Source: Pseudomonadota bacterium (GTDB lineage Bacteria; Desulfobacterota; Desulfarculia; Adiutricales; JAGVGV01). From it: a stretch of DNA of 64,000 bases. The notes below the pieces were generated by a model. The model did not search any database. It saw only the letters and a list, made by a program, of their open reading frames with translations, and was not told where the DNA came from. This document shows positions 1 through 59,085 of the stretch, one piece after another; the stretch's first letter is position 1; every line of letters begins with the position of its first letter. The stretch is from the NCBI GenBank assembly GCA_043806915.1, contig JAZDGM010000102.1, forward strand, positions 4,476-68,475, read 5' to 3'. The translations under genes were made by a program, and so were the position numbers.

Positions 1-218
1 AGGGCCCGGATGACCTGGTATCCGTCCATCCCGGGCATCATCACGTCCAGGAGAACGAGGTCCGGCGGCGCATCCCCGAAAACGATCTTGAGCGCGTCCG
101 GTCCATTGACCGCGAAACTGATCCTATATTCCGAAGCCAGGACTTCCTTGAGCACCTTGATGTTGGTCGGGACGTCGTCAACCACCAGGACTCTCGGCTT
201 AAGGTTTTCCTCCGACAT
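1..218 (-). CDS. response regulator receiver-domain protein (N-terminal part only; runs off the window start)
   Basis: Reverse-strand ATG at 218 with AGGA upstream. My translation is [69 protein letters not shown].., which carries the CheY-type VVDD...[11 protein letters not shown] signature. Lies directly downstream of the hybrid kinase on the same strand. Absent from the ORF track because it is open-ended. Confidence 0.8.
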
Positions 219-371
219 GGCCCTAATCCTTTCCGGACCGGCCGCGGCCGGTTATCCCCGTTAATCCCCGGCTCATCCACGCCTCGGGGCGCCGGCGGCG
301 AAGAGTTTGACAATATGGTCGTTCACGAGGGGCCTGTCGGCCCGCGCCCGCCAAGAGGCCTGTTTCCCGGG

Positions 372-6131
<5,760 letters not shown>

Positions 6132-6395
6132 GGTAGCTCCTTCGTCCCTGCTTATCTCGCCGGGAGGTGGTTCGGTTATGGGCGAGGCCCGACGAACTAA
6201 CTTATATGCAAGGGATAATAAGTGAAATGATGGGCAAAGGCAAGGCCGATCTCCCGTCGCCCCGCCTCTTTCCCGGGCGGCTTCGGGGCGGGAGGGGCGA
6301 CCTGGGCGGAGGTTGGGGGGGAGTCGTTTTTTGCCTTGGCGGTGATGTTTTTTCTTGACTGGCGGGGCCGCGGTTGGTAATGTCTGTATACATAT

Positions 6396-6496
6396 ATACC
6401 AACTGACACGGCCGCAAGCCATGTCGGTCATAACAACCAATGAACATGCCCTTCGGGCATTTTCATACCAACCGACATGACCGCGGGCCATGTCGG
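6396..6496. repeat. hairpin-rich intergenic repeat, family 1 (copy A, inverted relative to copy B at 39213..39382)
   Basis: The reverse complement reads CCGACATGGCCCGCGGTCATGTCGGTTGG-TATGAAAATGCCCGAAGGGCATGTTCATTGGTTGTTATGA-CCGACATGGCTTGCGGCCGTGTCAGTTGG. The 29-nt box differs by one base from 39353..39381. Each box is a stem-loop (CCGACATG..CATGTCGG; ATGCCC-GAAG-GGCAT). Confidence 0.8.
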
Positions 6497-6525
6497 GAAA
6501 CTTCCCGAGGGGAGGCCTGAGTCGC

Positions 6526-7272
6526 ATGGACCCGCCCAAATCCATCCCTTTATACCGGAAAGTCGCGGAAACGGTTAAGCAGCGGATATTGAACAATCAG
6601 TACGCCGCCGGAGGCCTCATCCCGCCGGCCCGGGAGTTGGCGGATGAATTCGAGGTCAGCAATATCACCATCCGCAAGGCCATGGAGGTCCTGACCAGTG
6701 AGGGTTTCCTGGTTCCCCGCCAGGGATGGGGGACCATGGTCGCCGAAAACTCCAGGGACTTGCTGGAAATCAGGTTGACCGGGAATTTCAACGATTGGTT
6801 CGACTCGGCCTCGGGCCGGAGGCCGAAACTTACGGCCGACATTTTGGCTTGCGAAAAAATCAGGCCCCCGGAGCGGGTCCGGGTCCTCCTGGGTCTGCCG
6901 CCCGAGACGGAAGTCTGGCGGATGCTCCGCCTGCGGCGACTGGAAAAAACTCCGGTCTCGTTTTTTCGTAACTATTTTCCGTCCGGGTTGCGCGAGAACA
7001 TCGACCCCCGGGCCGTGGAGGAGCGGAGCTTCATCGAGGTCTTTCAGGAAACCAACAAGATTCGTTTCACTAGGCTGGTTCAGCGCGTGGAGGCGAGCAT
7101 GGCGGACCTGGACTTGGCCGACGTTCTTGGCGTCGAATTCGGAGCGCCCCTTTTTTTTATCGAGAATACCTATTTTGCCGCGGGCCCTCGTCCGGTGGTG
7201 GTCACTCACATGTTCTACCGGGGGGACCGCTATGTTTACAGAGCCGATTTTCCTTTAACATCAAGCGAGTGA
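6526..7272 (+). CDS. GntR/HutC-family transcriptional regulator (wHTH plus UTRA effector domain)
   Basis: ORF 6490..7272; the ATG at 6526 is preceded by GGAGG. N-terminal IPLYRKVAETVKQRILNNQYAAGGLIPPARELADEFEVSNITIRKAMEVLTSEGFL is a GntR HTH. The C-terminal half has UTRA-like features (..FFIENTYFAAGPRPVVVTHMFYRGDRYVY). Confidence 0.85.
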   Translation: MDPPKSIPLYRKVAETVKQRILNNQYAAGGLIPPARELADEFEVSNITIRKAMEVLTSEGFLVPRQGWGTMVAENSRDLLEIRLTGNFNDWFDSASGRRPKLTADILACEKIRPPERVRVLLGLPPETEVWRMLRLRRLEKTPVSFFRNYFPSGLRENIDPRAVEERSFIEVFQETNKIRFTRLVQRVEASMADLDLADVLGVEFGAPLFFIENTYFAAGPRPVVVTHMFYRGDRYVYRADFPLTSSE

Positions 7273-9132: not shown

Positions 9133-10206
9133 ATGACGGAAAAAAAAATATATAGGATAGCGGTGCTGCCCGGCGACGGGACCGGCCCGGAAGTGATCCG
9201 GGAGGGCGTGAAAGCCCTCGCGGCCGCGGCCGACCGGGAAAACCTGGCCTTTGAACTCGACTACTTCGACCTCGGCGGCGAGCGGTACCTGAAAACCGGC
9301 GACATTCTGCCGGATGATGAATTTCAAAAATTGAAAACCTATTCGGCCATACTGCTGGGGGCTATCGGTCACCCGGACGTCAAACCCGGGATTCTGGAAA
9401 AGGGACTGCTCCTGGAACTTAGGTTCAAGCTGGACCAATACATCAACCTCCGGCCGGTGACCCTCTTCGAGGGGGCGGAAACCCCGTTGAAAAACAAGGG
9501 TCCCCGGGATATCGACTTCGTGGTGATCCGGGAGAACACCGAGGGCTTGTACACCGGGAGCGGCGGGTTCCTGAAAAAGGGGACCCCCCAGGAAGTCGCG
9601 ATTCAGGAATCCATCAACACCCGCTTCGGCGTGGAACGCTGCCTGCGCTACGCCTTCGATTATTGCCGCAACCGGAATAGAAGGAAAAAACTGACCCTGT
9701 GCGGCAAGACCAATGTCCTGACCTTCGCCTTCGACCTCTGGGAAAGGACCTTCCGCGAAGTGGCCCAGGAATATCCCGACGTGGAAACCGACTACGGTCA
9801 CGTGGACGCGGTCAGCATGTGGATGATCAAGAACCCGGAATGGTTCGACGTTATTGTCACGGACAACATGTTCGGGGACATCATCACGGATATCGGGGCC
9901 ATTATCCAGGGGGGGCTCGGGATCGCGGCCGGCGGCAATATCAACCCCCGGGGAGTGTCCATGTTCGAACCGATCGGCGGCTCGGCGCCCAAATACACGG
10001 GGTTGAACGTCATCAATCCCCTGGCCTGCATCGGGGCCGTGCAGATGATGTTGGAACATCTCGGCGAAAAAGCCGCGGCGGCCAGGGTGGAAGCGGCCAT
10101 TCGCAAGGTGGTGGCCCGGGACGTCACAAGCCTGGCCTCCGGGAAAATGGGATATACCACGCAACAGGTCGGCGATCTGGTGGCCGGGCATATCGCCTCG
10201 TCCTGA
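9133..10206 (+). CDS. isocitrate/isopropylmalate dehydrogenase-family oxidative decarboxylase (LeuB / tartrate-D-malate dehydrogenase-like)
   Basis: ATG 9133 follows AGGAGG. YRIAVLPGDGTGPEVIREG.., LDQYINLRPV, VVIRENTEGLYTG and NMFGDIITDIGA are family motifs. The N-terminal and loop regions look closer to TtuC/D-malate dehydrogenase than to classical LeuB (by eye). Confidence 0.8.
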   Translation: MTEKKIYRIAVLPGDGTGPEVIREGVKALAAAADRENLAFELDYFDLGGERYLKTGDILPDDEFQKLKTYSAILLGAIGHPDVKPGILEKGLLLELRFKLDQYINLRPVTLFEGAETPLKNKGPRDIDFVVIRENTEGLYTGSGGFLKKGTPQEVAIQESINTRFGVERCLRYAFDYCRNRNRRKKLTLCGKTNVLTFAFDLWERTFREVAQEYPDVETDYGHVDAVSMWMIKNPEWFDVIVTDNMFGDIITDIGAIIQGGLGIAAGGNINPRGVSMFEPIGGSAPKYTGLNVINPLACIGAVQMMLEHLGEKAAAARVEAAIRKVVARDVTSLASGKMGYTTQQVGDLVAGHIASS

Positions 10207-11722: not shown

Positions 11723-13309
11723 TTAGCTTTTATTCTCGACAAAATCCAGCAGGACCTTCAGGCGATGCTGGTAAGTGTGTTCGGCCAGCACTCTTTTTCG
11801 GGCCGCCCGCCCCATTTCTTCCCGCAGTTCCGGTCGTTGCAGAAAAAAGGCGATTTTGTCCCTAAGTTCGGCGACGTTTTCGAAGGTGGACAATTCCTTT
11901 TCCGGCTCGAAGAATTGTTGCAGCGGGTGGCGTCGATCGACCAACTGGAAGGCCCCGCAGGCGGCGATTTCAAAAGTCCTGGGATTGATGAAGCCTCCCG
12001 CCGCGTCCAGTCCCGCGGTGAAAATGGAGGAGTGCAGGTTGAGGTTGATCCTTCCGGCGTTATAGATCAGCACGGTTTCCGCGGTTGAAACCCGGGCCCC
12101 GTTTTTCTGGACCCGGCGGCCGAGGTCTGATTCCAGGTCCCACTCCGTCCCCCAGATTTTAAAATCGAAATCGAGAAGTTCGGGAAAGACGGCCCTCCGG
12201 TTAGGGTACCCGGCGCCCATGAAGGAGAGGTCGGCGCGAAAGGGGGCCAGGAGTCTCTGGTCCGCGATGGGTTGAAAGACCTCGGGATCGGCCGCCAGGG
12301 GGAGGTTGAGAAAATTCTTCACGCCCAATTTTTTCAACTCCGCTTCCATTTCCGCGCCCTGGATATGAAAAAAGTAATCGTAGCCCCCGGCGAATTCGCG
12401 GTAATAGGTCAGGAATCGTCCGTCCTCGACAAACCAGAAGGCGCTGGGACACCCGAGGTTCCTGATTCTGGCCAGGGTGTGCGGGTCCAGGGGGGCCTGG
12501 GCCAGGGCCAGGACTAGGTCCGGTTTCTCCGTTTCGACCAAGAGGGTGAGATAATCGCTAATAAAATGGATCAATCGTTTAAAAGCGTCATTTTTTTTAT
12601 CCGTCGACGCCTCGAGACGGCGCAGGGTTTGATAAAAAGGGTCCAAGGCGGCGAGGTCCAGGTCGATCACGTGGTGTCCCATGAGATTGAGGGCCCTGAC
12701 CGTATGGCGGGCCACCGGCAGTGACCCTCCAAAAAACGGCCCCACCACAAGTATTTTCCTGGCTGAATCCGTTTTGAGGCGAGGGACGCTTCGTTCCTGG
12801 AGGAAGAGGTTTATTTTGGAGCAGAACCCCGGTTCCAGCCTTTCCGCGGGGCGATGAACGAGCAGGGTCGGGCCGATCGGGATGAGGGGGAAGTCATCCT
12901 GGTCGGTTATAAAAAAAACCCGGCATAGGATGTCTTGCCACTCGCCAAGGGAAAGGGCCAGTTTCAAGACCGCGAGACTGGGTTCCACCACGTGGATATT
13001 CCTGAATTTAGCGGCCAGGGCCCTGATGTGGTATCCGAGGCCGAGCCCGAAAACGACCACGTCTTGGTCTATTTCCCGGGCCTTTTCCACGGCCCGGGAG
13101 GCCGCGAACTTCTCGGCCTCGCCGAGGGGGTCATGGCGGGAATGCAGGCTGAGACCCTTTCTGACCAAGACCGGCCGGCCGGTTTTGGAAAGGACTAACT
13201 CCAGATCGGGCGCCGGAGGCGTGTTCTTCAGCTTTTCGACCAAGGCCGGATTCCGCTCGGCCAGTATTTTCAAATTAGCATCGAGCCGAATATCGGCTTC
13301 ATTTTTCAT
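11723..13309 (-). CDS. Maf-N-terminal-like module fused to a CgeB-like (DUF3880/Glyco_trans_1_2-type) glycosyltransferase
   Basis: N-terminus: ..SKTGRPVLVRKGLSLHSRHDPLGEAEKFAA..VVVFGLGLGYHIRAL, the pattern found in motility-accessory-factor flagellin glycosylation proteins. C-terminus: LSFMGAGYPNRR..LNLHSS..NPRTFEIAACGAFQLVD..FENVAELRDKIAFFL..R..MGRAARKRVLAEHTYQHR, as in CgeB-family GTs. Overlaps the upstream gene by 11 nt. Confidence 0.75.
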   Translation of the reverse strand: MKNEADIRLDANLKILAERNPALVEKLKNTPPAPDLELVLSKTGRPVLVRKGLSLHSRHDPLGEAEKFAASRAVEKAREIDQDVVVFGLGLGYHIRALAAKFRNIHVVEPSLAVLKLALSLGEWQDILCRVFFITDQDDFPLIPIGPTLLVHRPAERLEPGFCSKINLFLQERSVPRLKTDSARKILVVGPFFGGSLPVARHTVRALNLMGHHVIDLDLAALDPFYQTLRRLEASTDKKNDAFKRLIHFISDYLTLLVETEKPDLVLALAQAPLDPHTLARIRNLGCPSAFWFVEDGRFLTYYREFAGGYDYFFHIQGAEMEAELKKLGVKNFLNLPLAADPEVFQPIADQRLLAPFRADLSFMGAGYPNRRAVFPELLDFDFKIWGTEWDLESDLGRRVQKNGARVSTAETVLIYNAGRINLNLHSSIFTAGLDAAGGFINPRTFEIAACGAFQLVDRRHPLQQFFEPEKELSTFENVAELRDKIAFFLQRPELREEMGRAARKRVLAEHTYQHRLKVLLDFVENKS

Positions 13310-14558
13310 CGGGGTTTTCCTTTTTCAAAAACCGGTCGGCGATGGCGCCGTAGTAGCTTGGCGCGAGACGCAGGGCGGGCCGGAGGGGGAACGCCTGGAC
13401 GTCCCCGCCGGGCGCCAGGGTCTTGATTCTCATGACCGCCAGTCCCGGCGCCTGCCCCACGATTAAAAACAGCCTGGGGTCGTCCCAATGGTCGTCTAAA
13501 ACCTTTCCGGCCAAGGCGGCCTGGAAAAGGTCCGGGGCCGCTTCCACCACCACGACCCGCCCGGTGCGACCCGGGTGTTCCAGCAGGGCCTGGACGTGAT
13601 AGCCCAAGCCCAGGCCCAGGACCAGGACGTCCTTGTCCCGGGGAATGTCCGCCGCCCAGGCCCGGGCTTCCTCTCGCGGGTCCCGGGAACTGTGCAGGGT
13701 GACCAGCCGGCCTTCTTTATTGACTCGAAGCGTCGGAAACCCGGCGGCCGAGGGAAATATCCCCCAATTTTTTCCTTTCCCCGCGACCGGGGACGCCGGT
13801 TCGCGGCGTCTCCCCGGCCCGGGCCGGGAGCGGCCGGCGGCGTCTAGGACCCGGAGGACCGCTGCCCGGACGTCCGCGACTTTAATTTCCTTCATGCAAC
13901 GCAGGGAGCCGTCCTCGCACTTGCCGGTGTAACTTGGGATCGGTCGCCTGGCCTGGCAGCCCAGGCAGGGGACGTCGGCCGTTACCGGCTCGAAAAGGCC
14001 GTCGAACGGTTTTCTCCATTCCGGCCGGATGCACCCGAAAAGGGCCACGACCGGCTTGCGGCGGGCGGCGGCCAGGTGCATCAGGCCGGAGTCCAAGCCT
14101 ACAAAGACATCCAGGCGATTTATGACCGCCGCTAAGTCCCGGAGCGAAAGTCGATCGATCAGGTTATGCAGGTTCGGCCAGGGAGACGGGGCGAAATCCG
14201 GGGTCTTGCCTAAAACCAGGATATTGGCCCCCTTTTCGACGGCCAGTTCCCGGGCTAGGCGGTCCCAGTTGTACCAGTCCCAGGTCCTTTCCGGCCAGGT
14301 CGCTCCAGGGTGCAGACCGATGACCGGGCCGGGGCCGAGGTTGAGTTCCGCCAGGATGCGGCCGCCTCGGGCCTCTTCGTCGGGAGTCAACCAAAGCGCC
14401 GGAGTGAGCTGCCTTGGGGGCAGGCCGGCCGATTCCAGGTACCCGTCCAGGATGTGCCGGTCGGGTCGGAATTCGTAGAACAATCGGATTTTTCGGTCGT
14501 GGAGGTATTCCGGCGGCAGGTCGTTGACGCCGGTCAAATCGGGATGACCCGCCAGCAA
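13299..14558 (-). CDS. glycosyltransferase family 9 (heptosyltransferase-like) core plus C-terminal Maf-N-like module; it lacks its own N-terminus (downstream half of a frameshifted gene)
   Basis: GT9 motifs: GLHPGATWPERTW..ILVLG..LRDLAAVINRLDVFVGLDSGLMHLAAARRKPVVALFG. The tail VTLHSSRDPREEARAWA..VLVLGLGLGYHVQAL is paralogous to the N-terminus of the next gene. It only starts at a TTG, immediately after the G8 tract. Confidence 0.7.
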   Translation of the reverse strand: MLAGHPDLTGVNDLPPEYLHDRKIRLFYEFRPDRHILDGYLESAGLPPRQLTPALWLTPDEEARGGRILAELNLGPGPVIGLHPGATWPERTWDWYNWDRLARELAVEKGANILVLGKTPDFAPSPWPNLHNLIDRLSLRDLAAVINRLDVFVGLDSGLMHLAAARRKPVVALFGCIRPEWRKPFDGLFEPVTADVPCLGCQARRPIPSYTGKCEDGSLRCMKEIKVADVRAAVLRVLDAAGRSRPGPGRRREPASPVAGKGKNWGIFPSAAGFPTLRVNKEGRLVTLHSSRDPREEARAWAADIPRDKDVLVLGLGLGYHVQALLEHPGRTGRVVVVEAAPDLFQAALAGKVLDDHWDDPRLFLIVGQAPGLAVMRIKTLAPGGDVQAFPLRPALRLAPSYYGAIADRFLKKENPDEK

Positions 14559-15436
14559 CAGGTGGTGGGGGGGGAGGTCAAAAAATGGAGCCGCGCCGCC
14601 GGGTCCCGCTGCTTAAGCTCCCTGATGACCGGTTCGGCCCACAGAACGTCTCCCAGCATGCCCGGCCTGATCAGCAGGACGGTGCGGTCCCGTTTTTCAT
14701 GCGGCCGGTTCGTTCCCTTCCGCCTCAGGATCATGAGAAACCTGGGCAGGCCGCCGTAATATCCCACCCAGGCCGGTTCCAGGCCGATGCGTCCGGCCAG
14801 GGCCGCCAGGGCGTCGGGGTTGAAAAGAAATAAGGGCGGTTCGCCCGAAAAGGTCGAGCCCGCGTCGACGTCTTCGCGGTCCAGGGCTTCGAGACACACA
14901 ACGCCGTCCCGGGTCAGCAGCCTTTCCATGAGAGCCAGTATTTCCAGGGGGTTGGGATGGTATTCAATATCCCGGACCCAGGAAACGACGTCAAAACGTT
15001 CCCAATCCGCGGGCTGGGCCGGGGCAAGCCCGGGTGGAAGGTCCAATTGATGGGGCTTGTCGGCCAACAAGGAGGTAATTTGATCGGTCTCGAGGCCCCG
15101 GGGCGCGAAGCCGGCCTGGCGGGCTTCAAGGAGCATGGTTCCTGGCCCGGGGAAAATATCCAACCATTTCCCTTCCGATATGTACCTGGAAATTTCCCTG
15201 GCCCGGACGGCGGAAACCCTTGCTTCCAGGGCTGGATAGGACCCCGGCGGGTCGGCGGGGCTTGGAGGCCGGCAGGGCGCCGCGGGCCGCGGCGAAACCT
15301 GGACCAAGCCGCAGGAGGGGCAGGCGGACAGGCGGCCGGCGCCGGACGGGTCCTTTTCCAGGGCCGTTCCGCAACCAAGGCAGGTCCCCGGTCGCGGCCC
15401 CGGTCCCTTTCCGTTCGGGTGGGATGTTGGCGTCAT
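14534..15436 (-). CDS. Zn-ribbon plus class I SAM-dependent methyltransferase plus the first ~40 aa of a GT9 domain (upstream half of the frameshifted gene)
   Basis: ORF 14534..15559; ATG at 15436 (MTPTSHPNG..). CLGCG..CPSCG ribbon. WLDIFPGPGTMLLEARQAGF..FDVVSWVRDIEYHPNPLEILALMERLLTRDGVVCLE methyltransferase fold. Ends with VLLIRPGMLGDVLWAEPVIRELKQRDPAARLHFLTSPP, the canonical GT9 N-terminus. Confidence 0.7.
   Translation of the reverse strand: MTPTSHPNGKGPGPRPGTCLGCGTALEKDPSGAGRLSACPSCGLVQVSPRPAAPCRPPSPADPPGSYPALEARVSAVRAREISRYISEGKWLDIFPGPGTMLLEARQAGFAPRGLETDQITSLLADKPHQLDLPPGLAPAQPADWERFDVVSWVRDIEYHPNPLEILALMERLLTRDGVVCLEALDREDVDAGSTFSGEPPLFLFNPDALAALAGRIGLEPAWVGYYGGLPRFLMILRRKGTNRPHEKRDRTVLLIRPGMLGDVLWAEPVIRELKQRDPAARLHFLTSPPTTCCWRVIPI
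14567..14574. repeat. G8 homopolymer (C8 on the coding strand) at the frame break between the two halves of the GT9 gene
   Basis: The coding strand reads ..CAT TTT TTG ACC TCC CCC CCC ACC ACC TGT.. and reaches a stop at 14534. One extra C gives ..TSPPHHLLLAGHPDLTG.., which continues seamlessly into ORF 13299..14558. Confidence 0.95.
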
Positions 15437-15752
15437 TGTTTCCCTGGGTTGTTCCTTTCCCGACCGGGTCGGCCTGGTTTCCAATCCCGTGAGTTCGAGG
15501 TTTGCGCAGCCCTTGAAAAACAAACGGCTTGACTGCATCACCTCTTCAGGGTCGCACAAACCCTTATTAGTTAAACCGGCCGCGGTTTCGAGACCCGTCC
15601 CTCGACCTGGAAATACCTGGTCGAGTCACGGGGGCGGCCCTATCCTTGACGGACCAGCGGTCAAATTCTTGACTAACGCCGGGCCGGCCGCCCTTGACCG
15701 GGCCGACGCAACGTCGTCGGGCCGGATTCGGGCCGGTTGACGCTGTTATTTT

Positions 15753-15924: not shown

Positions 15925-16284
15925 CTAGGCCTCCGAATTGAAGAGGGCGCCGGAAAACTCTTCCAGGTTCGCGGCGGCTTCCAGTATCGCCTCGGGGGGA
16001 AGCTGCCTCAAAACCTTATGGGTTTCCGGATCGATCACCTTAATGACGGTTCGGCCGGTGGCCTCGTGCACGGTGAATTCGAGGCTGATCTGGTGTTCGG
16101 CGGCCATGTCCTTGACCTGTTCGATGGCGGCGTCCAGGTCGGCTTGGTCCGCTTTCTTGGTCGGGGAGAGGGACTCGGTTTCGGGTTGGGGCTCGGTTGG
16201 CTGGGCGTCGACCCTGGGGACGGCGACCCGGGCGGCTAATTGAGCGTAAAGGCTGACTTCGGCGGCTTTTTTTATCTCTTCCAT
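15925..16284 (-). CDS. flaG: flagellar protein FlaG
   Basis: 119 aa. The C-terminal ISLEFTVHEATGRTVIKVIDPETHKVLRQLPPEAILE is the FlaG-family signature. AAGGA RBS. Confidence 0.8.
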   Translation of the reverse strand: MEEIKKAAEVSLYAQLAARVAVPRVDAQPTEPQPETESLSPTKKADQADLDAAIEQVKDMAAEHQISLEFTVHEATGRTVIKVIDPETHKVLRQLPPEAILEAAANLEEFSGALFNSEA

Positions 16285-16425: not shown

Positions 16426-16584
16426 GCAGTTTGAAAGTGATTTTGGCGCGGCAAATCCCGACGGAAGGAGGGTTTTGTCAATAAGTATAACGGACTGCCG
16501 GCCGAAAAAAAGTAACCTAAGGCATGGATGCCGAAAGCGCCCCAGGGAAGAATCGGGGCGAAAAATTCAAGGAGGATTTTTGTC

Positions 16585-18360
16585 ATGGCGATTTATACCA
16601 ATCATAATATTCTGGCTTCCCAGGCGGCCAGGTATCTGAATCAAAACTATTCCGCGTTGAGCGAATCCACCAACCGACTGTCATCGGGCCTCCGGATCAA
16701 TTCCGCGGCCGACGACGCCGCCGGTCTGGCCATCCGCGAGTTCATGCGGGCCGACATCGCCGTCATGAACCAGGGCTTGCGCAACGCGTCCGACGCCATC
16801 AGCTTGATCCAGACGGCCGAGGGGGCGTTGCAGGTAATCGACGAGAAGCTGATCCGGATGAAGGAGTTGGCCGAACAGGCGGCCACCGGCACCTACACCA
16901 CGGTTCAGCGCGAAATCATGAACTCCGAGTACCAGGCCATGGCGGCTGAAATCGACCGGATCGCCAACGCCACGGACTTCAACGGCATCAAGCTGCTTGA
17001 CGGCAGCATGAGCGCCCTGCATCAGACGGCCAGCCAAGTGAGCAACGGGTCCGGCGGCGCCGGTCTCAAGATTCATTTCGGCACCGGAAACCTGGCGGCG
17101 GAAGACTATTACTTCGTCAACATCTCGGATTCCCGGGCCACTTGCGCCACGGGTCTCCATGTGGGCGGAGACATCAAGTTCGCCGAAACCGAGGTTTGGA
17201 CCTCGACCACCAATTGGACCAGCTCGGCCAGCGCCGTCCATACCGGGACCTCGGGTTATTATGGATTTTTCTACGACACCGAGGCCAATTCCGCCACCGC
17301 GGGCGCCCCTCAAACCCTGTCCTACCTGACGGGCGTCTACGAGGCGGCTTCGGGCGCCACCCTGAGCCAGGTCGTCAGCGACATCAACAGCGGCACCAGG
17401 TCTCGCGTGGTGATGAATGTTTCCGGCGCCTCCACGGTCGACGACCTGGCCATTACCGGCTCCACCGAAAGCTTCGCCCTGACCATCGGCGCCAGGACCT
17501 ACGGCTTCGTGGCCAACACCGACGGCAGCGCCTGGGCCCTCAACTCCGCCGGCGCCGACGTGGTTTACGATGTCGGCGGCAGCAGCGGCGGCATGAGCGT
17601 CCGGAACTTCCTGGCCAGCGCGGTCAACAACGACGCTTCCGCCGACGTTTACGCGGTCTACGGCGCGGACTCCGATGAACTCTGGTTCTTCGCCAAGTCT
17701 TCCGGGACCAACGCCTGGGCCGTGACCGAACAGGCCCAAGCCACCACCGGAGGCGGCAATTCGGCGGTCAGCGCCCTGACCTGGACCAACGTCTCCACGG
17801 GCGTCACCAGCGGGACCGCCAGCTTCAGCCTGGGCGGACTTAATTGGGTCAACGCCTCGGTGGGCGGCAATGCCACTTCCGGGTTCACCCTGCGGGTCGA
17901 AGGCGCCAGCGCCGGCGCCGGGTTCGACATTGAGGCCTTCCAGTTCGGCGCCGCGAGCGCGTCCATCACCACGACCAGCGGCGGCATCTCCTTCGGCGCC
18001 ATTGACTTCGCAATGTCGGAAACGCGCAACGCTTCCGCGGCGGCCGCGACTTCCGCCGGCGCCCACATCCGGACCCAGTCCGCGGCCCAGGAAGCCTTGG
18101 CGGCCCTGGACTCGGCCATTACCAAGAAAGATACCACCCGCGCCAGCCTGGGTTCCTTGCAGAACCGGCTGGAAAACACCATAACCAACTTGTCCATACA
18201 GGCGGAAAACCTGCAAGCGGCTGAATCCCGGATTTCCGACGTGGACATCGCCACCGAGATGACGGAATTCACCCGGGCCAACATCATGACCCAGGCTTCC
18301 ACCTCGATGCTGGCCCAGGCCAACTCCCTGGCCCAGTTGGCCCTCAGCCTGATGGGTTAG
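16585..18360 (+). CDS. fliC: flagellin (591 aa) with a large Ser/Thr/Gly/Ala-rich central domain
   Basis: ORF 16528..18360; ATG 16585 follows AAGGAGG. The N-terminus MAIYTNHNILASQAARYLNQNYSALSESTNRLSSGLRINSAADDAAGLAI and C-terminus SLGSLQNRLENTITNL..AESRISDVDIATEMTEFTRANIMTQASTSMLAQAN are canonical D0/D1 segments. Confidence 0.95.
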   Translation: MAIYTNHNILASQAARYLNQNYSALSESTNRLSSGLRINSAADDAAGLAIREFMRADIAVMNQGLRNASDAISLIQTAEGALQVIDEKLIRMKELAEQAATGTYTTVQREIMNSEYQAMAAEIDRIANATDFNGIKLLDGSMSALHQTASQVSNGSGGAGLKIHFGTGNLAAEDYYFVNISDSRATCATGLHVGGDIKFAETEVWTSTTNWTSSASAVHTGTSGYYGFFYDTEANSATAGAPQTLSYLTGVYEAASGATLSQVVSDINSGTRSRVVMNVSGASTVDDLAITGSTESFALTIGARTYGFVANTDGSAWALNSAGADVVYDVGGSSGGMSVRNFLASAVNNDASADVYAVYGADSDELWFFAKSSGTNAWAVTEQAQATTGGGNSAVSALTWTNVSTGVTSGTASFSLGGLNWVNASVGGNATSGFTLRVEGASAGAGFDIEAFQFGAASASITTTSGGISFGAIDFAMSETRNASAAAATSAGAHIRTQSAAQEALAALDSAITKKDTTRASLGSLQNRLENTITNLSIQAENLQAAESRISDVDIATEMTEFTRANIMTQASTSMLAQANSLAQLALSLMG

Positions 18361-18646: not shown

Positions 18647-20803
18647 ATGGCCGCGGATGTGACCCTGGCTTCAGGGACCGCCTCGTATCTTTCGGGGAGC
18701 ATAAAATGGTCGGGTTTGGCCTCGGGCGTCGATTTCGGCACGGTGGTCGACCAGTTGGTGGAGTTGGAGAGATTGACCATCACCAACCTGACCACCTGGA
18801 GGGCCGACTGGTCGGCCAAGGTCGATTCCATTACCACGCTCAATACCAGGATGTCCGACCTGAAGACCGCGTCCAAGGACATGGATACCTTTTCCGAGTT
18901 CTATTCCAGGGTTTCCACTTCCACTGATTCCTCGGTGGTCTCGGTGACCAACAGCAGCACCGCCTCGGCCGGATCGCATTCGGTGACGGTGGGGGAAAAC
19001 ATTCCCGGACGGATGATTTCCACCAGTTACGAGGACGAAGTGGGCGTGGGCGGGACGGTTGGAGAAAAATTTATTATCACCGTCGGCGACAAGACGCTCG
19101 AGCTGACCGCCGTCGACGGGGCGGCCGGGATCGGAGAATTCGATATCAACGGGGATATCGACGCCCTGGCCCAAGCTATAAAGGACGCCGACAACGCCGC
19201 GGCCGAACAGATACTGGGAGAGGTTTACGCGGCCCAGGACAAGGACCGCGACGGGACCATTTACAAGCGCTTGGTCATAAACGCCAAGAATGCCCTGGGG
19301 GGTAGCGCCAACGCCGTCTCCATTTCCGACCCGACCAATTTGAGCCTGGACGAAAACAGCCTTGACCAGGCTTATGTCAAGGGGGAGTGGGGTGGAACGT
19401 CCACCGTTTCCTCGGGCGGAACATACAACGGCAACACCAATAAAACCTTCACCTTCAGGGTGACCAATTCGGCCACGCTCACCTCCGATCCGGAAACCAG
19501 CGGCGCGGTGATCGTCCAGTGGGCCGACAACGAGGGACATGGCGGCAAACTCACCGTGGATCAGGCGAACAAGGCTTTCGAGGTATTCCAGGGCGTCGAA
19601 ATTACTTTTGGCGAGGGCTTGGCCCTGCAGGAAAACGCCTTTACCATCGACGCCTACAATCCGACGCTGCAAGCCGCCCAGGACGTGGGGCTGGCTGCGG
19701 CGGAACAACGGGTCCATTCCGGTTTTTCCGATATGATCACCAAGCTGCATGCCGGGCCCGGGTCGGCCGAATTCGTCTATCGCTACGAAGGGGTCGAAAC
19801 AACAGTGGAAATCCCCGAGGGGGCTAAATTGCAGGACTTGGTCAACGCCATCAACATGGACCCCCTCAACCGCGGGGTGAAGGCTTCCATCGTCAACGAC
19901 GGGCAGAGCACCGCGACGTCCTACCATCTGGTCCTGACCGGTCAAAAACCCGGCGCCCAGTATTCCGTCGATATCGTCAGCGAGACCATGGATAATTTCG
20001 AGGCCGCGGACTCCGATTTCTCAACCCCCCAGAAAGCGGCCAACGCCTTGTTCAAGGTGGACGGATACCCGAGCGAGCCCGGGTATTACTTGCAGCGGTC
20101 CTCCAACACGGTCGCGGACATCATCACCGGGGTGACCCTCAACCTGAAGGGTTCCGGGACCGCGGTGGTCACGGTCAGCGACGACGTGGACGCCATTGAG
20201 GAAAAGATTAATAATTTTATAAGCTATGTCAATTACTTGCAGAACTATATCAACGTCGAGACCAGGTACGATTCCGAAACCAAGGAAAAGGGCGTGATGC
20301 TCGGCAATTACACGTACGACATCGTAAAGTCGGACGTCAACCGCCTCATGGCCGAAAGCTTGGTGCGCCAGGCCGGCGACGAGTATTCGTACGCCTATAC
20401 CCATTTGTCCCAGATCGGGATCACCTCGGACCCGGACAACGAGGGCATGTGGGTAATTGACGACGATTTATTGACGCAAGCCCTGAACGAAGACCTCGAA
20501 GGCGTGGCCCGCCTTTTTGTCCAGGACCCGGAAAGGGGCAGCAACGGCATTGCCAATAAAATGCGCGTCAAAATGGAAAAATTCACCGACTCCGTAAACG
20601 GGATCGGCAATGTTTTAATTACCAATTATAACGGCATCATGGAGCAGATCGACGAAAAGATAGCACGGGAGGAAAAGAGGGTGGCCGCGGTTCAGACCAG
20701 GTTGGAGGAAAAATTCGCCCGGCTGGAAACCGCTCTCAGCACGCTGGAAGGCCAATCCAGCTATCTTGAATCCCAGCTTAGCAATATCGTCAGCGTCAAG
20801 TAA
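18647..20803 (+). CDS. fliD: flagellar filament capping protein FliD (hook-associated protein 2)
   Basis: 718 aa; AAGGAG RBS. The N-terminal GSIKWSGLASGVDFGTVVDQLVELERLTITNL and the C-terminal coiled-coil ..RLEEKFARLETALSTLEGQSSYLESQL match FliD N and C domains. Confidence 0.9.
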   Translation: MAADVTLASGTASYLSGSIKWSGLASGVDFGTVVDQLVELERLTITNLTTWRADWSAKVDSITTLNTRMSDLKTASKDMDTFSEFYSRVSTSTDSSVVSVTNSSTASAGSHSVTVGENIPGRMISTSYEDEVGVGGTVGEKFIITVGDKTLELTAVDGAAGIGEFDINGDIDALAQAIKDADNAAAEQILGEVYAAQDKDRDGTIYKRLVINAKNALGGSANAVSISDPTNLSLDENSLDQAYVKGEWGGTSTVSSGGTYNGNTNKTFTFRVTNSATLTSDPETSGAVIVQWADNEGHGGKLTVDQANKAFEVFQGVEITFGEGLALQENAFTIDAYNPTLQAAQDVGLAAAEQRVHSGFSDMITKLHAGPGSAEFVYRYEGVETTVEIPEGAKLQDLVNAINMDPLNRGVKASIVNDGQSTATSYHLVLTGQKPGAQYSVDIVSETMDNFEAADSDFSTPQKAANALFKVDGYPSEPGYYLQRSSNTVADIITGVTLNLKGSGTAVVTVSDDVDAIEEKINNFISYVNYLQNYINVETRYDSETKEKGVMLGNYTYDIVKSDVNRLMAESLVRQAGDEYSYAYTHLSQIGITSDPDNEGMWVIDDDLLTQALNEDLEGVARLFVQDPERGSNGIANKMRVKMEKFTDSVNGIGNVLITNYNGIMEQIDEKIAREEKRVAAVQTRLEEKFARLETALSTLEGQSSYLESQLSNIVSVK

Positions 20804-20836
20804 AGTTTAACCAGGCAGGTGAAATCGGGAGGTCTT

Positions 20837-21268
20837 ATGAACGTATACGGGCAACGTCAATACAAACGCACGCAGGTCACGACGGTTGACAAGGGTCGCT
20901 TGATCGTCCTTCTTTACGAAGGGGCGATCAAGTTCCTCCGGCAGGCCAAGGAATGCACCGAGGCCGGGGACGCCGCCGGAAAGGCGGGCTTCATCAACCG
21001 GGCCCTGGATATTATCGCGGAATTGAATCAGTCCCTCAATATGAAGGACGGCGGGGAAATTTCGGTCAATCTGCGCAAGCTGTATTTGTTCTGGTCCGAT
21101 CACCTGATTCAGGGCAAGATCAAAAAGGAGTCCAAGAACATCGACGACGTCTTGAAGATGATGACTTCCCTTTGCGAGGCTTGGGACTACGCCGTGTCCC
21201 AACCCGAGGCCCAGGACGCCATTCCCAAGACGGATAGCAAAAACGTCAGGGCCCAGATGACCGTTTAG
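20837..21268 (+). CDS. fliS: flagellin-specific chaperone FliS
   Basis: ATG 20837 follows GGGAGG. MNVYGQRQYKRTQVTTVDKGRLIVLLYEGAIKFLRQA..INRALDIIAELNQSLNM..GGEISVNLRKLYLF is the FliS four-helix pattern. Confidence 0.9.
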   Translation: MNVYGQRQYKRTQVTTVDKGRLIVLLYEGAIKFLRQAKECTEAGDAAGKAGFINRALDIIAELNQSLNMKDGGEISVNLRKLYLFWSDHLIQGKIKKESKNIDDVLKMMTSLCEAWDYAVSQPEAQDAIPKTDSKNVRAQMTV

Positions 21269-21896
21269 ACGACCGCGGGGAAAAGCCCCGGCTTGGCTTT
21301 CCGATTTCATCCGACCGCAAGGATTGGCGCGCCGACGGGACGGTCCCGTTCGGCCCCGATCCGGCCCGATGCGGCCCCGATCCGGATGGTTTGGCGGCGA
21401 CCCGAAGCCGGGCGATGGCCTTTGTTCGTACCGCGTCCCTTTTTTCAATGGAGGCCGGGGGCCGGAAAGCTAGGCGGCGAGTTCCATTTTTTCGCTTCGG
21501 CCATCCCGATCCGGTCAATTCGGGTCGAGTGTTTTTCGAGGGCGGAATGCAACGTCCCTTGATCTCCAGTTTCTTATCGTCTTCTCCTCGTCAACTTCCT
21601 GGTTAAGGCTTTTCTTCCCGTTTCAAACGAACCGGGCAGGCCGCCCGCCGTTCCCCTTGGCTTGCGCGCAACCCCCCTTGGCGGCGACAGGCCCTAACCG
21701 GCCCGCTGAAGCGGTCCATGTTTTTTTCCGGGCTTGGGAAAAGGGCTGGACTCCGATCGGGAAAAAAATTACACTTTTTTCAAAGACCGAGAAAAATCGG
21801 CCCGCGCGTCGGAAGGGCCGCAACCGCGTCCGGGAAGGCAAACGGGTCGATTTCAAAAAAATATTTAACATCGAGATGTTATCCCGTGGAGGGGCG

Positions 21897-22271
21897 ATGC
21901 CGTCAAAAAAAGGCGCCGGCGATTCGGAAAAATTGAACCAAATGGTTGACGAGGCCCGCCGTAAAAAACTGGCCGAGGACTTGTACCGGGAAAAGGCCCT
22001 CAAGCTTTTTCCCTGGGTTTGCGGTCGTTGCGGCCGGGAATTCGCCGGCAAAAAATTACGGGAGTTGACTGTTCACCACAAGGACCATAACCATAATAAC
22101 AATCCTCCCGATGGCGGCAATTGGGAGCTGCTGTGTATCTATTGTCATGATAACGAACATTCCCGCCTGGAAATGGAAAGCGAATATGGGGTGGAGGAAA
22201 CGAAGTCGGAAAAACCCTCCCTTTCCAGCAAACCCTTCGCCGCCTTGGAAAAACTACTGAAAGGCAAGTAA
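21897..22271 (+). CDS. yajD: YajD-like HNH nuclease-family protein
   Basis: ATG 21897 follows GTGGAGGGG. YREKALKLFPWVCGRCGREFAGKKLRELTVHHKDHNHNNNPPDGGNWELLCIYCHDNEHS aligns almost residue for residue with my recollection of E. coli YajD. The upstream 80 codons of ORF 21657..22271 look non-coding. Confidence 0.85.
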   Translation: MPSKKGAGDSEKLNQMVDEARRKKLAEDLYREKALKLFPWVCGRCGREFAGKKLRELTVHHKDHNHNNNPPDGGNWELLCIYCHDNEHSRLEMESEYGVEETKSEKPSLSSKPFAALEKLLKGK

Positions 22272-53388: not shown

Positions 53389-54033
53389 GTTTTTCTCCCA
53401 AGTCGCCGGACGGTGGTCGGAAGGGGCCCTGACCGGCCCAACTTTTTCCGGAAACCCGCCGCGCGATTTTTCCGATTCGCCCCACTAGGCCACGCGAAGG
53501 ACTTTAAAGTATCGCCCAGGGAAAATCAAGGCCGAGGCGAAACAGTCAACCGGGGGTGGATAAATCCAAAATTGTGCGAATTGAACAGCGCGGGTTGGCT
53601 TTTTGGCCTGTTAGCGGCCGGTTGAAAACGATGACTAGGATACAAGGGGTCACGCCGGCAAGAAATCATAAAGAAGAAAAATTAATTAGTCAAATTTTTT
53701 GAACTGAAAAAGAAAGGGACAATACAATTTCAGATGGCCGCTGACAGTTTGGAAGAGTTGGAGGAATTTTTTCGGGCTTTGGCCGGCTCGGCTTCCAATT
53801 CGGCAATTATGGCCAGGCTCTTCTTTCTCGACTAGCCAATTCCTGGTTTGCTTGACCATCACCACTCCTTGTTTGAAGGAGCCAATTCTTGGCAATGAGC
53901 GAAATTTGTCGTAGTTCGTGGCTAAGTGTGGCTATTGTATGTAAAGTAGAGGTCAAATGCAAGTAATTTACACAAAATTACAGATCAACTTTAATAAATC
54001 CAGGGTAGACCGCTTTTTGGCCGGAAGGGCGCC

Positions 54034-54063
54034 CAATGAACTACCCCGCGGCAAGCTACGGTG
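54034..54063. repeat. short intergenic repeat, family 3 (copy B)
   Basis: See 29141..29172; the 18-nt core CCCCGCGGCAAGCTACGG is identical. Confidence 0.6.
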
Positions 54064-54306
54064 TATCAAATTAGACCCAGAGCAATTAAAAAAAATACTC
54101 CCCGCCTGGCCTCTGTGAACGGTTACCAAAAAGGAGGTGTGGGTAAAGATGAGCTACACTGGAGAGCGACCCGGGCGACGGGCCGTGGCCAAGACTGAGT
54201 AAAACAAACCAAGCCCCACGACTTTATCTCGGGATTGGCCTTAAAACGTTAAACCCCAGGGGTGTGGGGACAGAGTTCCCACGGGACAGCTTTGAGGTCA
54301 TATCTC

Positions 54307-54594
54307 ATGACAGGGAAAACTCCAATTCACGGAGAACCAGTACATCAGGCCATGCCGGCCGATACCCCTTTGGTTAAAAACTTGGAAGAACTGGATTATT
54401 TGGAGCTACTCCTTCATGGCAAGGCTAATTTTAAAGAGCTATTCGCTGATCTGGAGGCGGCATCGCCACAAGGCGTCGCCGAAATGCAACCTGACGCCGA
54501 CCGCGTGCCAACAGGTTTTCAAGCGCTCATAAGAACCGAGAACCTACCCGAAAAAATTCTTTGCTCATTCCAAGGGATACCTAAAACGACCTAA
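54307..54594 (+). CDS. hypothetical protein (95 aa), doubtful
   Basis: ATG 54307 inside ORF 54262..54594 (MTGKTPIHGEPVHQAMPADTPLVKNLEELDYLELLLHGKANFKELF..). No SD sequence and no recognisable motif. Listed only because it is the longest ORF in the island. Confidence 0.3.
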   Translation: MTGKTPIHGEPVHQAMPADTPLVKNLEELDYLELLLHGKANFKELFADLEAASPQGVAEMQPDADRVPTGFQALIRTENLPEKILCSFQGIPKTT

Positions 54595-55004
54595 CCCCAC
54601 CGAATTTTGGGACAATAGGAAAAAAAATATAAGAAACCGGGAGAAGTGTCTAAAATATGGAAAAAGTATTGACATTTATAAAAAATATTGTTACGTAGGA
54701 ATTCAAGGGTTTGCAGACGATAATTTTGATACGAAATACTATTCAGACACCGGGAGGTGACGAGGGCGGGGCGTCGAACTTATCCCGAACCAATTGTATC
54801 GATAGCCTGATAACGCGCCTTGTTTATTTGATCGATAAATACAGGCCAACGATATAACTTTCGGTAATTTTACCGGCAGGTGGACGATTACCGCCATTTC
54901 GGGGGAATGCGGATTTTTTGTGGATAAACCGATGATTCAATTGCAAGATTTAGGGATTAGCCCCAAATCAGGGATGGCGATAGGTTTAACTCGCGAGCTA
55001 CTTT

Positions 55005-55062
55005 AGTATTTCGAGGAGTTAAAATTGAGCTGACGATGAGTTGGGGCAAGGACCGAAGTTTT
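55005..55062. repeat. conserved ~60-nt intergenic element, family 2 (copy B)
   Basis: See 11396..11455. Followed here by a possible stem GAGTTGG..CCGACTC and a T7 run (55077..55086). Confidence 0.75.
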
Positions 55063-55334
55063 TAGCCGACTCCAATTTGTTTTTTTACATCGGTTTCATC
55101 GGATAATTATTGCGGTTAGCGCCTAACGGGGTTCTTATTTGTTAAAAAAGAAAATATCCCTCCGGCGCCGGCATAACGAACGGACAGTTTCCGACACTAA
55201 TTTTAGGCGTGGGGGATCAAAGAAAACCCAGGAAAGACGACTTTTACATTTTTAAGCGATAATTCAGAATGTGGGTCAATTAGCGGATTAGATACAAGAT
55301 ATTGGTTCATGTCTACTTTTCCCTTGGGGGCGTA

Positions 55335-56090
55335 ATGAATATTAAAATGATGGGAAGAGGACTGATTCTCTTGACCCTGTGCTCGGTCTGTCTTTATTTT
55401 CCAGTCGGCCGATCACAAGGGGGGCAGCTCGAAAAAACTTACTCCCTCCAGATGAAAGGCGGCAATCTCAAGGATTCGTTGGCGGAATTTTCCCTCCTGA
55501 CGGGCATTGACGTACAAGTGAACAATGTGCCGGAAAAGGAGACCGGTAAAAGATGTTTTCAGGATAAATCAGCGGAATATATCATTACCGATCTACTGCG
55601 CGGCACGAGCCGCGCGGCGCTGTATTACCGTAACGGAGAGGGCGTCTTCATGGTGAAGGTTCTTTTTTTTGACGAGAGTCCCGCTAGCGGGGGAAGCATC
55701 AAGACGACAAATTCATACGGCGCCACTGAAAATCAAGACCAATCCCACGCTTCGCTCGAACGCCGGCCTGCATCTCGACCGGAGACGTACAATCCGGCGT
55801 CAACCTTGAGTCAACCAGCCCACGCCGTGGAACAAACCAAGGAAAACCAAACCAATAACAATTTTTCAGAAGACAAGCCCAATAGACTGTCAAAAAACGC
55901 CCGGACCTCCGTTGCCGGACGGACCGGTTCAAACAAAAATCTTTCGAGTTATTCGGGGGGTGGAACATCGGAAGTCGTGACGCCGGAACAGGCGAAGGCC
56001 TCGGGTTCCAACGAGGAATCCGAGCCTACGCCCTCTCCGCCGGCCACCGTCTCCGGCCTTGAGACTCCCCCCATGCCGCCTGGTATGTAA
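55335..56090 (+). CDS. secreted protein with an STN-like (secretin/TonB N-terminus-type) domain and a long S/T/N/P-rich disordered tail
   Basis: ATG 55335. Signal peptide MNIKMMGRGLILLTLCSVCLYFPVG. LQMKGGNLKDSLAEFSLLTGIDVQV..AEYIITDLLRGTS..FMVKVLF resembles STN domains. The remaining ~140 aa are low complexity. Confidence 0.6.
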   Translation: MNIKMMGRGLILLTLCSVCLYFPVGRSQGGQLEKTYSLQMKGGNLKDSLAEFSLLTGIDVQVNNVPEKETGKRCFQDKSAEYIITDLLRGTSRAALYYRNGEGVFMVKVLFFDESPASGGSIKTTNSYGATENQDQSHASLERRPASRPETYNPASTLSQPAHAVEQTKENQTNNNFSEDKPNRLSKNARTSVAGRTGSNKNLSSYSGGGTSEVVTPEQAKASGSNEESEPTPSPPATVSGLETPPMPPGM

Positions 56091-58711: not shown

Positions 58712-59044
58712 ATGCGCAAGGCAACGTTTTCTCTCTGGATGGTTGTATGCCTATTAATGACAGGCTTGGCCGCCTCCGCTGTGCGTCGTGCGGAAGAAAT
58801 CCATAGCTCTCTTCACATGCGGCCGACCACGTCCCAACCCCGTTTTTTTAATACGCCCACAACCCTGGCCAGCGACGGGTCGGGAAAGAAATATATCTTT
58901 GATCACGGGTACAAGCGCGTTTTGAAATATGACGCCAGTGGGAATTTCTTGGACGAGGTCCTGGAGGTTACCGGCGACGAGGGTGTTTTAACGTCGTCGC
59001 CATTAAATGTGGCGGTTTCATATCCCGCGATATTCGGAGGCTGA
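58712..59044 (+). CDS. small secreted protein with a single NHL-like repeat (possible gene remnant)
   Basis: ATG 58712. Signal peptide MRKATFSLWMVVCLLMTGLAASA. KKYIFDHGYKRVLKYDASGNFLDEV resembles one NHL blade, and a full propeller would need about six. Confidence 0.45.
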   Translation: MRKATFSLWMVVCLLMTGLAASAVRRAEEIHSSLHMRPTTSQPRFFNTPTTLASDGSGKKYIFDHGYKRVLKYDASGNFLDEVLEVTGDEGVLTSSPLNVAVSYPAIFGG

Positions 59045-59085
59045 CCGGGAAAATTCCGGTTATGGCTTCAAGAATGGGGGGCGGC

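Follow-up and report, generated by a model that had tools for sequence, protein, structure and literature searches.

In Campylobacter, no function is phase-variable more often than the modification of flagellin with glycans (PMC6321876; PMC3068675; PMC13130089). In C. jejuni and C. coli, the genes maf1, maf4, maf7 and Cj1295 lie in a flagellin glycosylation neighbourhood and carry intragenic G/C runs of at least seven bases, in which a one-base change switches between a full-length and a truncated product (PMC6321876, PMC3068675, PMC13130089). Tracts of G7-13 in maf1 and G7-10 in Cj1295 have been recorded, and a G/C run of at least 7 serves as the phasome cutoff, with the caution from PhasomeIt that such tracts may mutate at rates below 1e-5 (PMC6321876). 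Here we describe a gene of related appearance that adjoins flagellin in a stretch of 64,000 nucleotides (hereafter the window: contig JAZDGM010000102.1 of assembly GCA_043806915.1, positions 4,476 to 68,475) from a bacterium placed by GTDB in the Desulfarculia. Its reading frame is broken at a run of eight C residues on the coding strand, which the initial annotation of this DNA took for the OFF state of a candidate phase-variable switch.

Homopolymer phase variation is also known outside the classic pathogens, as in the 7C tract of Mycobacterium tuberculosis glpK, a short (7-9) G/C run in an ordinary gene of a GC-rich genome; its slippage frameshifts are reversible, occur at modest rates, and arise at a tract that does not look designed (PMC10334774). 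The locus described here resembles glpK in these respects. For glpK, recurrence over thousands of isolates shows both variation and selection, whereas here we have one sequence. Rates at such tracts can be very low: a 7G tract in Mycobacterium smegmatis slips 3e-8 times per generation (PMC10334774). A third comparison is with the homopolymer errors of long-read metagenome assemblies, which likewise appear as a one-base contraction of the longest run in an otherwise intact gene; relatives on contigs named in the contig_N style show breaks of the same kind. Unlike in such assemblies, no other error of this type is present among the ∼25 coding runs of 7-9 in the window. Frameshifts at homopolymers are familiar, be they real, artefactual or phase-variable; what would be new here is the instance, the lineage and the enzyme architecture.

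A single gene interrupted at a poly-C tract

The coding (−) strand around the break reads cat ttt ttg acc tcc ccc ccc acc acc tgt, which places C8 at 14574..14567. The tract spans the last two bases of a Ser codon and two Pro codons. On the plus strand, 14567..14574 is the sole G8 within the 64-kb window; there is a single C8, at 56202..56209, and there are no G/C runs of nine or more. ORF 14534..15559(-) and ORF 13299..14558(-) change frame exactly at the G8. The former ends ...LHFLTSPPTTCCWRVIPI*, and the frame of the latter is open from 14612 and reads ...PPHHLLLAGHPDLTGVNDL.... Insertion of one C at the tract gives ...LHFLTSPPHHLLLAGHPDLTGV..., with no other stop, and the ninth C then opens the codon that follows (Cac, His). 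Both ORFs belong to a single gene, interrupted where a C9 run is one base short. The parts of this gene are as follows.

13299..15436, minus strand: the whole interrupted gene, 712 aa with C9; the alternative start is ATG 15538.
14534..15538, minus strand: the upstream frame as given (P0007, 334 aa), with a Zn-ribbon, a methyltransferase-like (MT-like) part, GT9 β1-α1-β2, 14 out-of-frame codons and TGA.
14567..14574, minus strand: the poly-C tract (G8 on the plus strand), at which the frame breaks, with the bases tCC CCC CCC.
13299..14566, minus strand: the downstream frame, with the remaining GT9 and a Maf-N-like tail (P0001, 412 aa, TTG starts only).

The repaired product is 712 aa long from ATG 15436 or 746 aa from ATG 15538, and the ATG 15436 start keeps an orthologue-like spacing to the CxxC motif. 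In the C8 form, translation meets a stop 14 codons past the tract, after out-of-frame residues. A change of a single repeat unit toggles the full-length (C9) and the truncated (C8) product, and the tract length lies within the G/C ≥7 cutoff of PhasomeIt. Near the break, the only starts in the downstream frame are TTG 14558 and TTG 14537, and no convincing Shine-Dalgarno sequence precedes either of them. Database protein P0001 begins at TTG 14537, which shares bases with the upstream TGA in the overlap TTGA. The initial annotation had placed the G8 exactly at the frame break and had predicted a seamless protein of ∼710 aa upon addition of one C, and both statements were confirmed. It had also denied the downstream ORF a credible start, in agreement with these observations.

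Elsewhere in the gene we found no further stop or shift: the frame break at the tract is the sole lesion in 2.1 kb, and because of this the lesion would be young. It is also the only broken gene in the window.

Orthologues and predicted architecture

The family to which this gene belongs is tiny in public data, with six matches among 5.8 billion proteins and a handful of close ones when 1.84 billion representatives were searched with HMMER. Protein databases, GTDB genomes, JGI metagenomes and this HMMER search yielded no sequence from the same species, the nearest being 60% identical. One homologue, P0003, is fused and intact (720 aa; 44% identity, 96% coverage). Its context is FliS-FliD-flagellin-FlaG-[this gene]-[MafN-GT1_2] in L002, L003 and L006, which are a JGI metagenome and a metagenome-assembled genome (MAG) contig named k141_... 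In L004, a Thermodesulfobacteriota MAG contig named NODE_.., residues 17-632 of the query are matched in a single frame up to the contig end. Intact fused orthologues in the FliS-FliD-flagellin-FlaG context are thereby present in two short-read MAGs. Stand-alone GT9-MafN homologues that have neither the Zn-ribbon nor the methyltransferase occur in L005 (a Desulfarculia chromosome) and L007, in a non-flagellar context. Both of these genes (L005:5983..7407, L007:427..1989) adjoin a thioesterase-like gene, so flagellin loci are not the only setting of the GT9-MafN module.

In a three-way alignment, HFLTSPPHHLL of the window corresponds to HFLTAPPHDLL of the closest orthologue, L001, and the junction is crossed without a gap. 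Because of this gapless alignment, C9 is the parsimonious intact state of the gene as judged from sequence. The GT9-Maf part is 60% identical to L001, compared to 66% for the neighbouring glycosyltransferase. The initial annotation had suggested that orthologous loci be compared for tract length, and in this comparison no homopolymer is present at the site in L001, L003, L005 or L007. Where the window has ACC TCC CCC CC(C) CAC, L001 has ACC GCT CCT CCG CAC and L003 has ACG GGC GTG CCC GAG; L004 was read as protein only (..QTRHPAV..).

To the joined product, Pfam assigned Glyco_transf_9 (PF01075) with 73.7 bits (cutoff 22, E 1.9e-20), and by this match above the cutoff the gene is predicted to be a member of the GT9 (GT-B) family. 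Methyltransf_23 scored 25.0 bits, under its cutoff of 27, and a 40-residue match to Maf_flag10_N scored 21.8 bits, under its cutoff of 23.5. All four cysteines of the Zn-ribbon (CxxC...CxxC) are invariant in the orthologue alignment. Of the four parts named in the initial annotation, the GT9 domain scores above threshold and the Zn-ribbon keeps its cysteines, whereas the methyltransferase and the Maf-N-like piece stay below threshold. The MAF_flag10 (DUF115) catalytic domain had no Pfam match at E ≤0.01 in the joined product. Because no MAF_flag10 domain was found, the broken gene is not a member of the Maf family, and in this it is unlike the Campylobacter maf genes: it is a GT9 gene with a sub-threshold Maf-N-like piece.

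We then compared the family profile with the sequences in the PDB. The GT9 C-domain matches that of heptosyltransferase II, WaaF (1psw, 178-299), with E about 1e-8, and query residues 253-290 weakly and collinearly match WaaF residues 2-39, the first β-α-β of the N-domain. Common to WaaC/WaaF (GT9; PDB 1psw) and the present protein are hence the C-domain match and a collinear N-terminal β1-α1-β2. The Cys4 ribbon and methyltransferase match TcaB9-type sugar C-methyltransferases (5t64, 3ndi; E 4e-8 to 1e-6), which share the N-terminal Cys4 Zn-ribbon plus methyltransferase layout. Unlike in WaaF or TcaB9, both modules are fused here and are followed by an extra Maf-N-like Rossmann tail; and unlike WaaC/WaaF, the gene adjoins flagellin rather than lipopolysaccharide genes.

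An AlphaFold2 model of the repaired protein had a mean pLDDT of 54 and was used only for the order of secondary structure around the break. In this low-confidence model, β1 (252-257), α1 (261-277) and β2 (282-287) precede the tract codons 288-290, which follow directly after β2. The C8 product would comprise the Zn-ribbon, the MT-like part and a GT9 stub of 40 residues, followed by 14 meaningless ones, and the sequence as given cannot yield a complete GT9 domain. These results bear out two further claims of the initial annotation, namely that the upstream ORF holds only the first ∼40 residues of GT9 (they align to WaaF 2-39) and that the sequence as given is the OFF form, truncated just past GT9 strand β2.

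The MT-like domain is the fastest-evolving part, with 29-33% identity between orthologues versus 47-60% for the GT9-Maf part. Its S-adenosylmethionine (SAM) motif I in the window (15100..15170, residues ∼90-100) is LDIFPGPG, in which the first Gly is replaced by Phe, a difference from the TcaB9-type enzymes. The motif in L001 (∼410..450) is LDLAPGRS, also without the first Gly, while P0003 and L004 have the canonical LDVGCSYG. The domain may be catalytically inactive in the clade of the window and L001.

Explanations for the frame break

We tentatively favor a genuine slippage allele, that is, a change from C9 to C8 in cells. The working form would carry C9 as a by-product of TCC CCC CCC CAC (Ser-Pro-Pro-His), and slipped-strand mispairing in replication would have contracted it to C8 in the sequenced population. 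Translation would leave the frame after GT9 β2 and stop 14 codons on. With no complete GT9 domain, the glycosyltransferase should be inactive; the break is likely to be disabling, as it falls after β1-α1-β2 and leaves a downstream frame with TTG starts only. Moreover, ∼1.2 kb of mRNA would no longer be translated in the frame of the protein, and the downstream glycosyltransferase would probably be reduced through lost translational coupling and polarity. Flagellin would then stay unmodified or be differently modified. Slippage from C8 to C9 could revert the allele, so the change would be reversible in principle.

Several considerations weigh against this reading. A slip in cells is not separable from a slip in sequencing or consensus calling, and the apparent change, one base lost from the longest G/C run in coding DNA, is how homopolymer errors classically look in long-read and other data. 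An otherwise conserved gene is equally predicted by an artefact. It would also be surprising to find a null allele as the majority form if glycosylation is needed for filament assembly. Finally, the intact and broken copies divide by assembly type: the two "contig_N" assemblies (L001 and L008) are broken, and the k141_ and NODE_ assemblies are intact. This pattern lowers the weight of L001 as independent biology and raises the prior for an artefact in the clade.

The split in L001 (ENA ERZ21862147 contig_22) lies 30 codons upstream of the break site in the window, at an A6 run (858..863) within tcg aga aaa aag aaa tac tat taa. One extra A in this run gives ..ISRKKEILLIRPGMLGD.., a seamless fusion. 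None of the other ten genes of L001 is broken, and the split gene itself carries longer runs (A8, T7) that stay in frame. For the L001 split, a real allele, recoding and a long-read error are all conceivable. In L008 (ENA ERZ21878492 contig_33, 3.9 kb), a P0003-like gene is scattered over five or more frame pieces and its neighbour over three; frame changes number at least 5 in the former and 2 in the latter, at least seven over the gene pair (103..3867); fragments of these genes were deposited as separate proteins (P0009, P0014). L008 is plainly a noisy, long-read-style contig. We had considered recurrent breakage as evidence for biology, an idea that looked promising from the L001 split and was weakened by the frame changes in L008. 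A literature search on the ENA accessions and on GT9-type flagellin glycosyltransferases returned nothing specific.

It may quite possibly be, then, that the consensus or assembly is in error, that the organism has C9 and an intact 712-aa gene, and that one homopolymer base was lost. In keeping with this, the break removes a single base from the longest G/C run in coding DNA, the gene is otherwise free of lesions, both halves are conserved, and the overlap with the downstream gene is as in an intact operon. The related contig L008 is clearly error-ridden, L001 likewise appears to be missing one base in an A run, and the short-read-named L003 and L004 are intact. Pattern scans of the GTDB representatives and the JGI metagenomes did not return the window, which would make an ENA-type metagenome assembly a plausible source. 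To assess the quality of the window sequence, we combined codon-usage frame segmentation, stop-to-stop ORF chains and Pfam domain coverage. Elsewhere in the window, all changes of frame on one strand coincide with normal gene boundaries, and ∼40 genes have full-length Pfam domains; a generally error-ridden assembly was rejected on these grounds. About 25 A/T runs of 7-9 inside long ORFs are in frame, including approximately ten 8-mers and an A9 at the start of leuB (9140..9148), as is the second C8 (56202..56209). A platform prone to miscalling 8-9-mers should have damaged at least one further gene. These data argue against a homopolymer-blind consensus, although a single error at the longest G/C run is compatible with them.

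A narrower version of the slippage allele is an evolved contingency locus, a selected ON/OFF poly-C switch of flagellin glycosylation of which the present copy is OFF. We regard this as unlikely. In its favor, the tract of 8/9 lies within the Campylobacter phasome cutoff (PMC6321876), one-base steps toggle full-length and truncated protein, the gene class is the expected one, that of flagellin glycan modification (PMC6321876; PMC3068675; PMC13130089), and glpK is a precedent outside the classic pathogens (PMC10334774). The independent split of L001, 30 codons away, would also fit, with the reservation that the L001 break may be a long-read error; and it is mildly suggestive that both G/C runs of at least 8 in the window are in surface-related genes. 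On the other side, the tract is conserved in no orthologue, it lies ∼290 codons into the gene rather than near the 5′ end, and slippage at 7-9-mers can be too slow for effective switching. It is also the single tract of the locus, a second G/C tract in the flagellar locus not having been found, whereas Campylobacter loci have many.

The abundance of such tracts also speaks against selection for them. A random sequence of the base composition of the window would contain ∼5 G/C runs of at least 8, compared to two observed, which agrees with the statement in the initial annotation that G8/C8 runs are unsurprising by chance. For a stricter null, we resampled synonymous codons over 55 kb of window coding DNA. 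Under this null, 7.6 G/C runs of at least 8 are expected (2 observed) and 3.0 of at least 9 (1 observed, counting the repaired C9); for shorter runs, the numbers are 6 observed versus 20 expected (at least 7) and 24 versus 57 (at least 6). G/C homopolymers are 3-4 times depleted rather than enriched, in a genome of 59% GC, and in both this depletion and the lack of conservation of the tract the locus is unlike those of Campylobacter. CCC is the commonest Pro codon (47%), and yet CCC-CCC is found in only 5 of 71 Pro-Pro pairs, compared to ∼15 expected. The genome purges G/C runs, and the tract is a survivor, not an excess.

For the initial annotation, the signal lay in the tract coinciding with the frame break. 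The coincidence is real but is expected under every hypothesis, and it does not discriminate among mutation, artefact and switch, because C9 is the most slippery site for a polymerase, for sequencing chemistry and for a switch alike. Its broader proposal holds in part: there is one gene, broken at the tract and in OFF form, and the data gave no positive support for an evolved switch. Taken together, they point to an accidental hotspot rather than an evolved contingency switch, and a plain frameshift allele and a homopolymer error are together more likely than the latter. It is correspondingly doubtful that an uncultured, probably free-living anaerobe of the Thermodesulfobacteriota type uses poly-C to switch a GT9-type flagellin glycosyltransferase operon across its population and that L001 independently toggles the same gene at an A run 30 codons away.

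If the slippage allele is genuine and variable, homopolymer ON/OFF control of flagellin glycosylation would extend from Campylobacter-like pathogens to environmental relatives of sulfate reducers, and would act there on an uncharacterized flagellin-locus architecture of Zn-ribbon, MT-like domain, GT9 and Maf-N-like tail. Were a switch the true explanation, contingency would have targeted this gene recurrently in bacteria that are not host-associated pathogens, with flagellotropic phages as one conceivable selective force. Should the break instead prove an artefact or a simple null allele, the value of the result would be mainly practical: the database entries P0007 and P0001 are two halves of a single gene, and a break at the longest homopolymer is by itself no evidence for a switch. 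Interest in the locus stays modest until read-level data show G8/G9 heterogeneity.

Recoding, by which a full-length protein would be made from C8 through −1 frameshifting on C_CCC_CCC or through transcriptional slippage, with a short MT-only protein and a long fusion as products, seems very improbable; L001 would on this reading recode likewise, on A_AAA_AAG. The breaks in the window and in L001 do need the same net −1 shift, both heptamers are in the X_XXY_YYZ phase, and zero-frame stops follow within 14 codons (window) and 3 codons (L001). The L001 heptamer, A_AAA_AAG, is canonical: this is the −1 slippery heptamer of dnaX type. Any C8, by contrast, gives an in-phase heptamer in whichever frame it lies, so the match in the window is uninformative, and C-rich heptamers are not known to be efficient −1 sites. 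G/C runs are also poor sites of transcriptional slippage. Sequences downstream of the break fold no better than shuffles (z 0.06 to −0.9), and the sites in the window and L001 are non-homologous and are absent from the intact L003 and L004. A programmed −1 frameshift site was rejected for these reasons, the in-phase heptamer being accompanied by no structure beyond that of shuffles and by no such site in orthologues. In L001 itself (853..890), the zero frame reads A_AAA_AAG and the stop comes three codons later; a −1 slip there, like the extra A, would join the two frames seamlessly.

Gene fission, with the MT-like and GT9-Maf parts as separate genes and re-initiation at TTG 14537, is equally remote: GT9-MafN proteins that lack an MT domain exist (L005, L007), the MT part evolves fast (33% versus 60% identity), the first Gly of SAM motif I is lost in the window and L001, and a TTGA overlap, a known coupling arrangement, is present, but the split falls inside the GT9 N-domain, so that the downstream product is without β1-α1-β2 and the invariant G-D-V-L-W motif, that segment is still present in the stand-alone proteins of L005 and L007, the upstream ORF is burdened with a GT9 stub of no use and 14 out-of-frame residues, and there is neither an ATG/GTG start nor a clear ribosome-binding site. 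The degenerate MT domain does not rescue a reading as two genes, since the split costs GT9 an essential segment that is kept in the stand-alone homologues.

Flagellar neighborhood and other genes of the window

The genes around the interrupted gene are the following.

11723..13309, minus strand: Maf_flag10_N-like / DUF3880 / Glyco_trans_1_2 glycosyltransferase (Pfam); the orthologous gene pair is kept in L001 and L002.
15925..16284, minus strand: FlaG (PF03646, 1.6e-22), upstream on the same strand; same order in L002.
16528..18360, plus strand: flagellin, 610 aa, Flagellin_N and Flagellin_C with a large central domain.
18647..20803, plus strand: FliD (Pfam).
20819..21268, plus strand: FliS (Pfam).

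Given this neighborhood, flagellin is the presumed glycosylation substrate, and the broken gene probably adds sugars to the flagellum. The next gene (11723..13309) overlaps the end of the broken gene by 11 nt and is probably translationally coupled to it. Within this next gene, runs of T8 (12591..12598) and A8 (12911..12918) are in frame, as the initial annotation had reported for the operon.

Directly after fliS, an ORF with an HNH endonuclease domain (21474..22271) occupies a short stretch with four A7/T7 runs. Further away, 372..6596(-) encodes a 2074-aa hybrid sensor kinase with approximately seven PAS domains, HisKA/HATPase, two receiver domains and Hpt.

The C8 at 56202..56209 (gtc ccc ccc cag) lies in frame, ∼5 codons past a predicted signal-peptide cleavage site. 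Its host gene (56122..58497) encodes a secreted protein with repeated PKD/Ig-like domains, and the run could be a second slippage hotspot, in this case in a surface protein. The region 53500..56000 is low in GC (47-51% versus 59% overall), with ORFs that are few and short, and with several A8/T8 runs. Downstream of it follow the PKD protein and a right-handed β-helix protein of at least 1689 aa (58933..63999, continuing past the end of the window), and the region could be an acquired surface-protein island.

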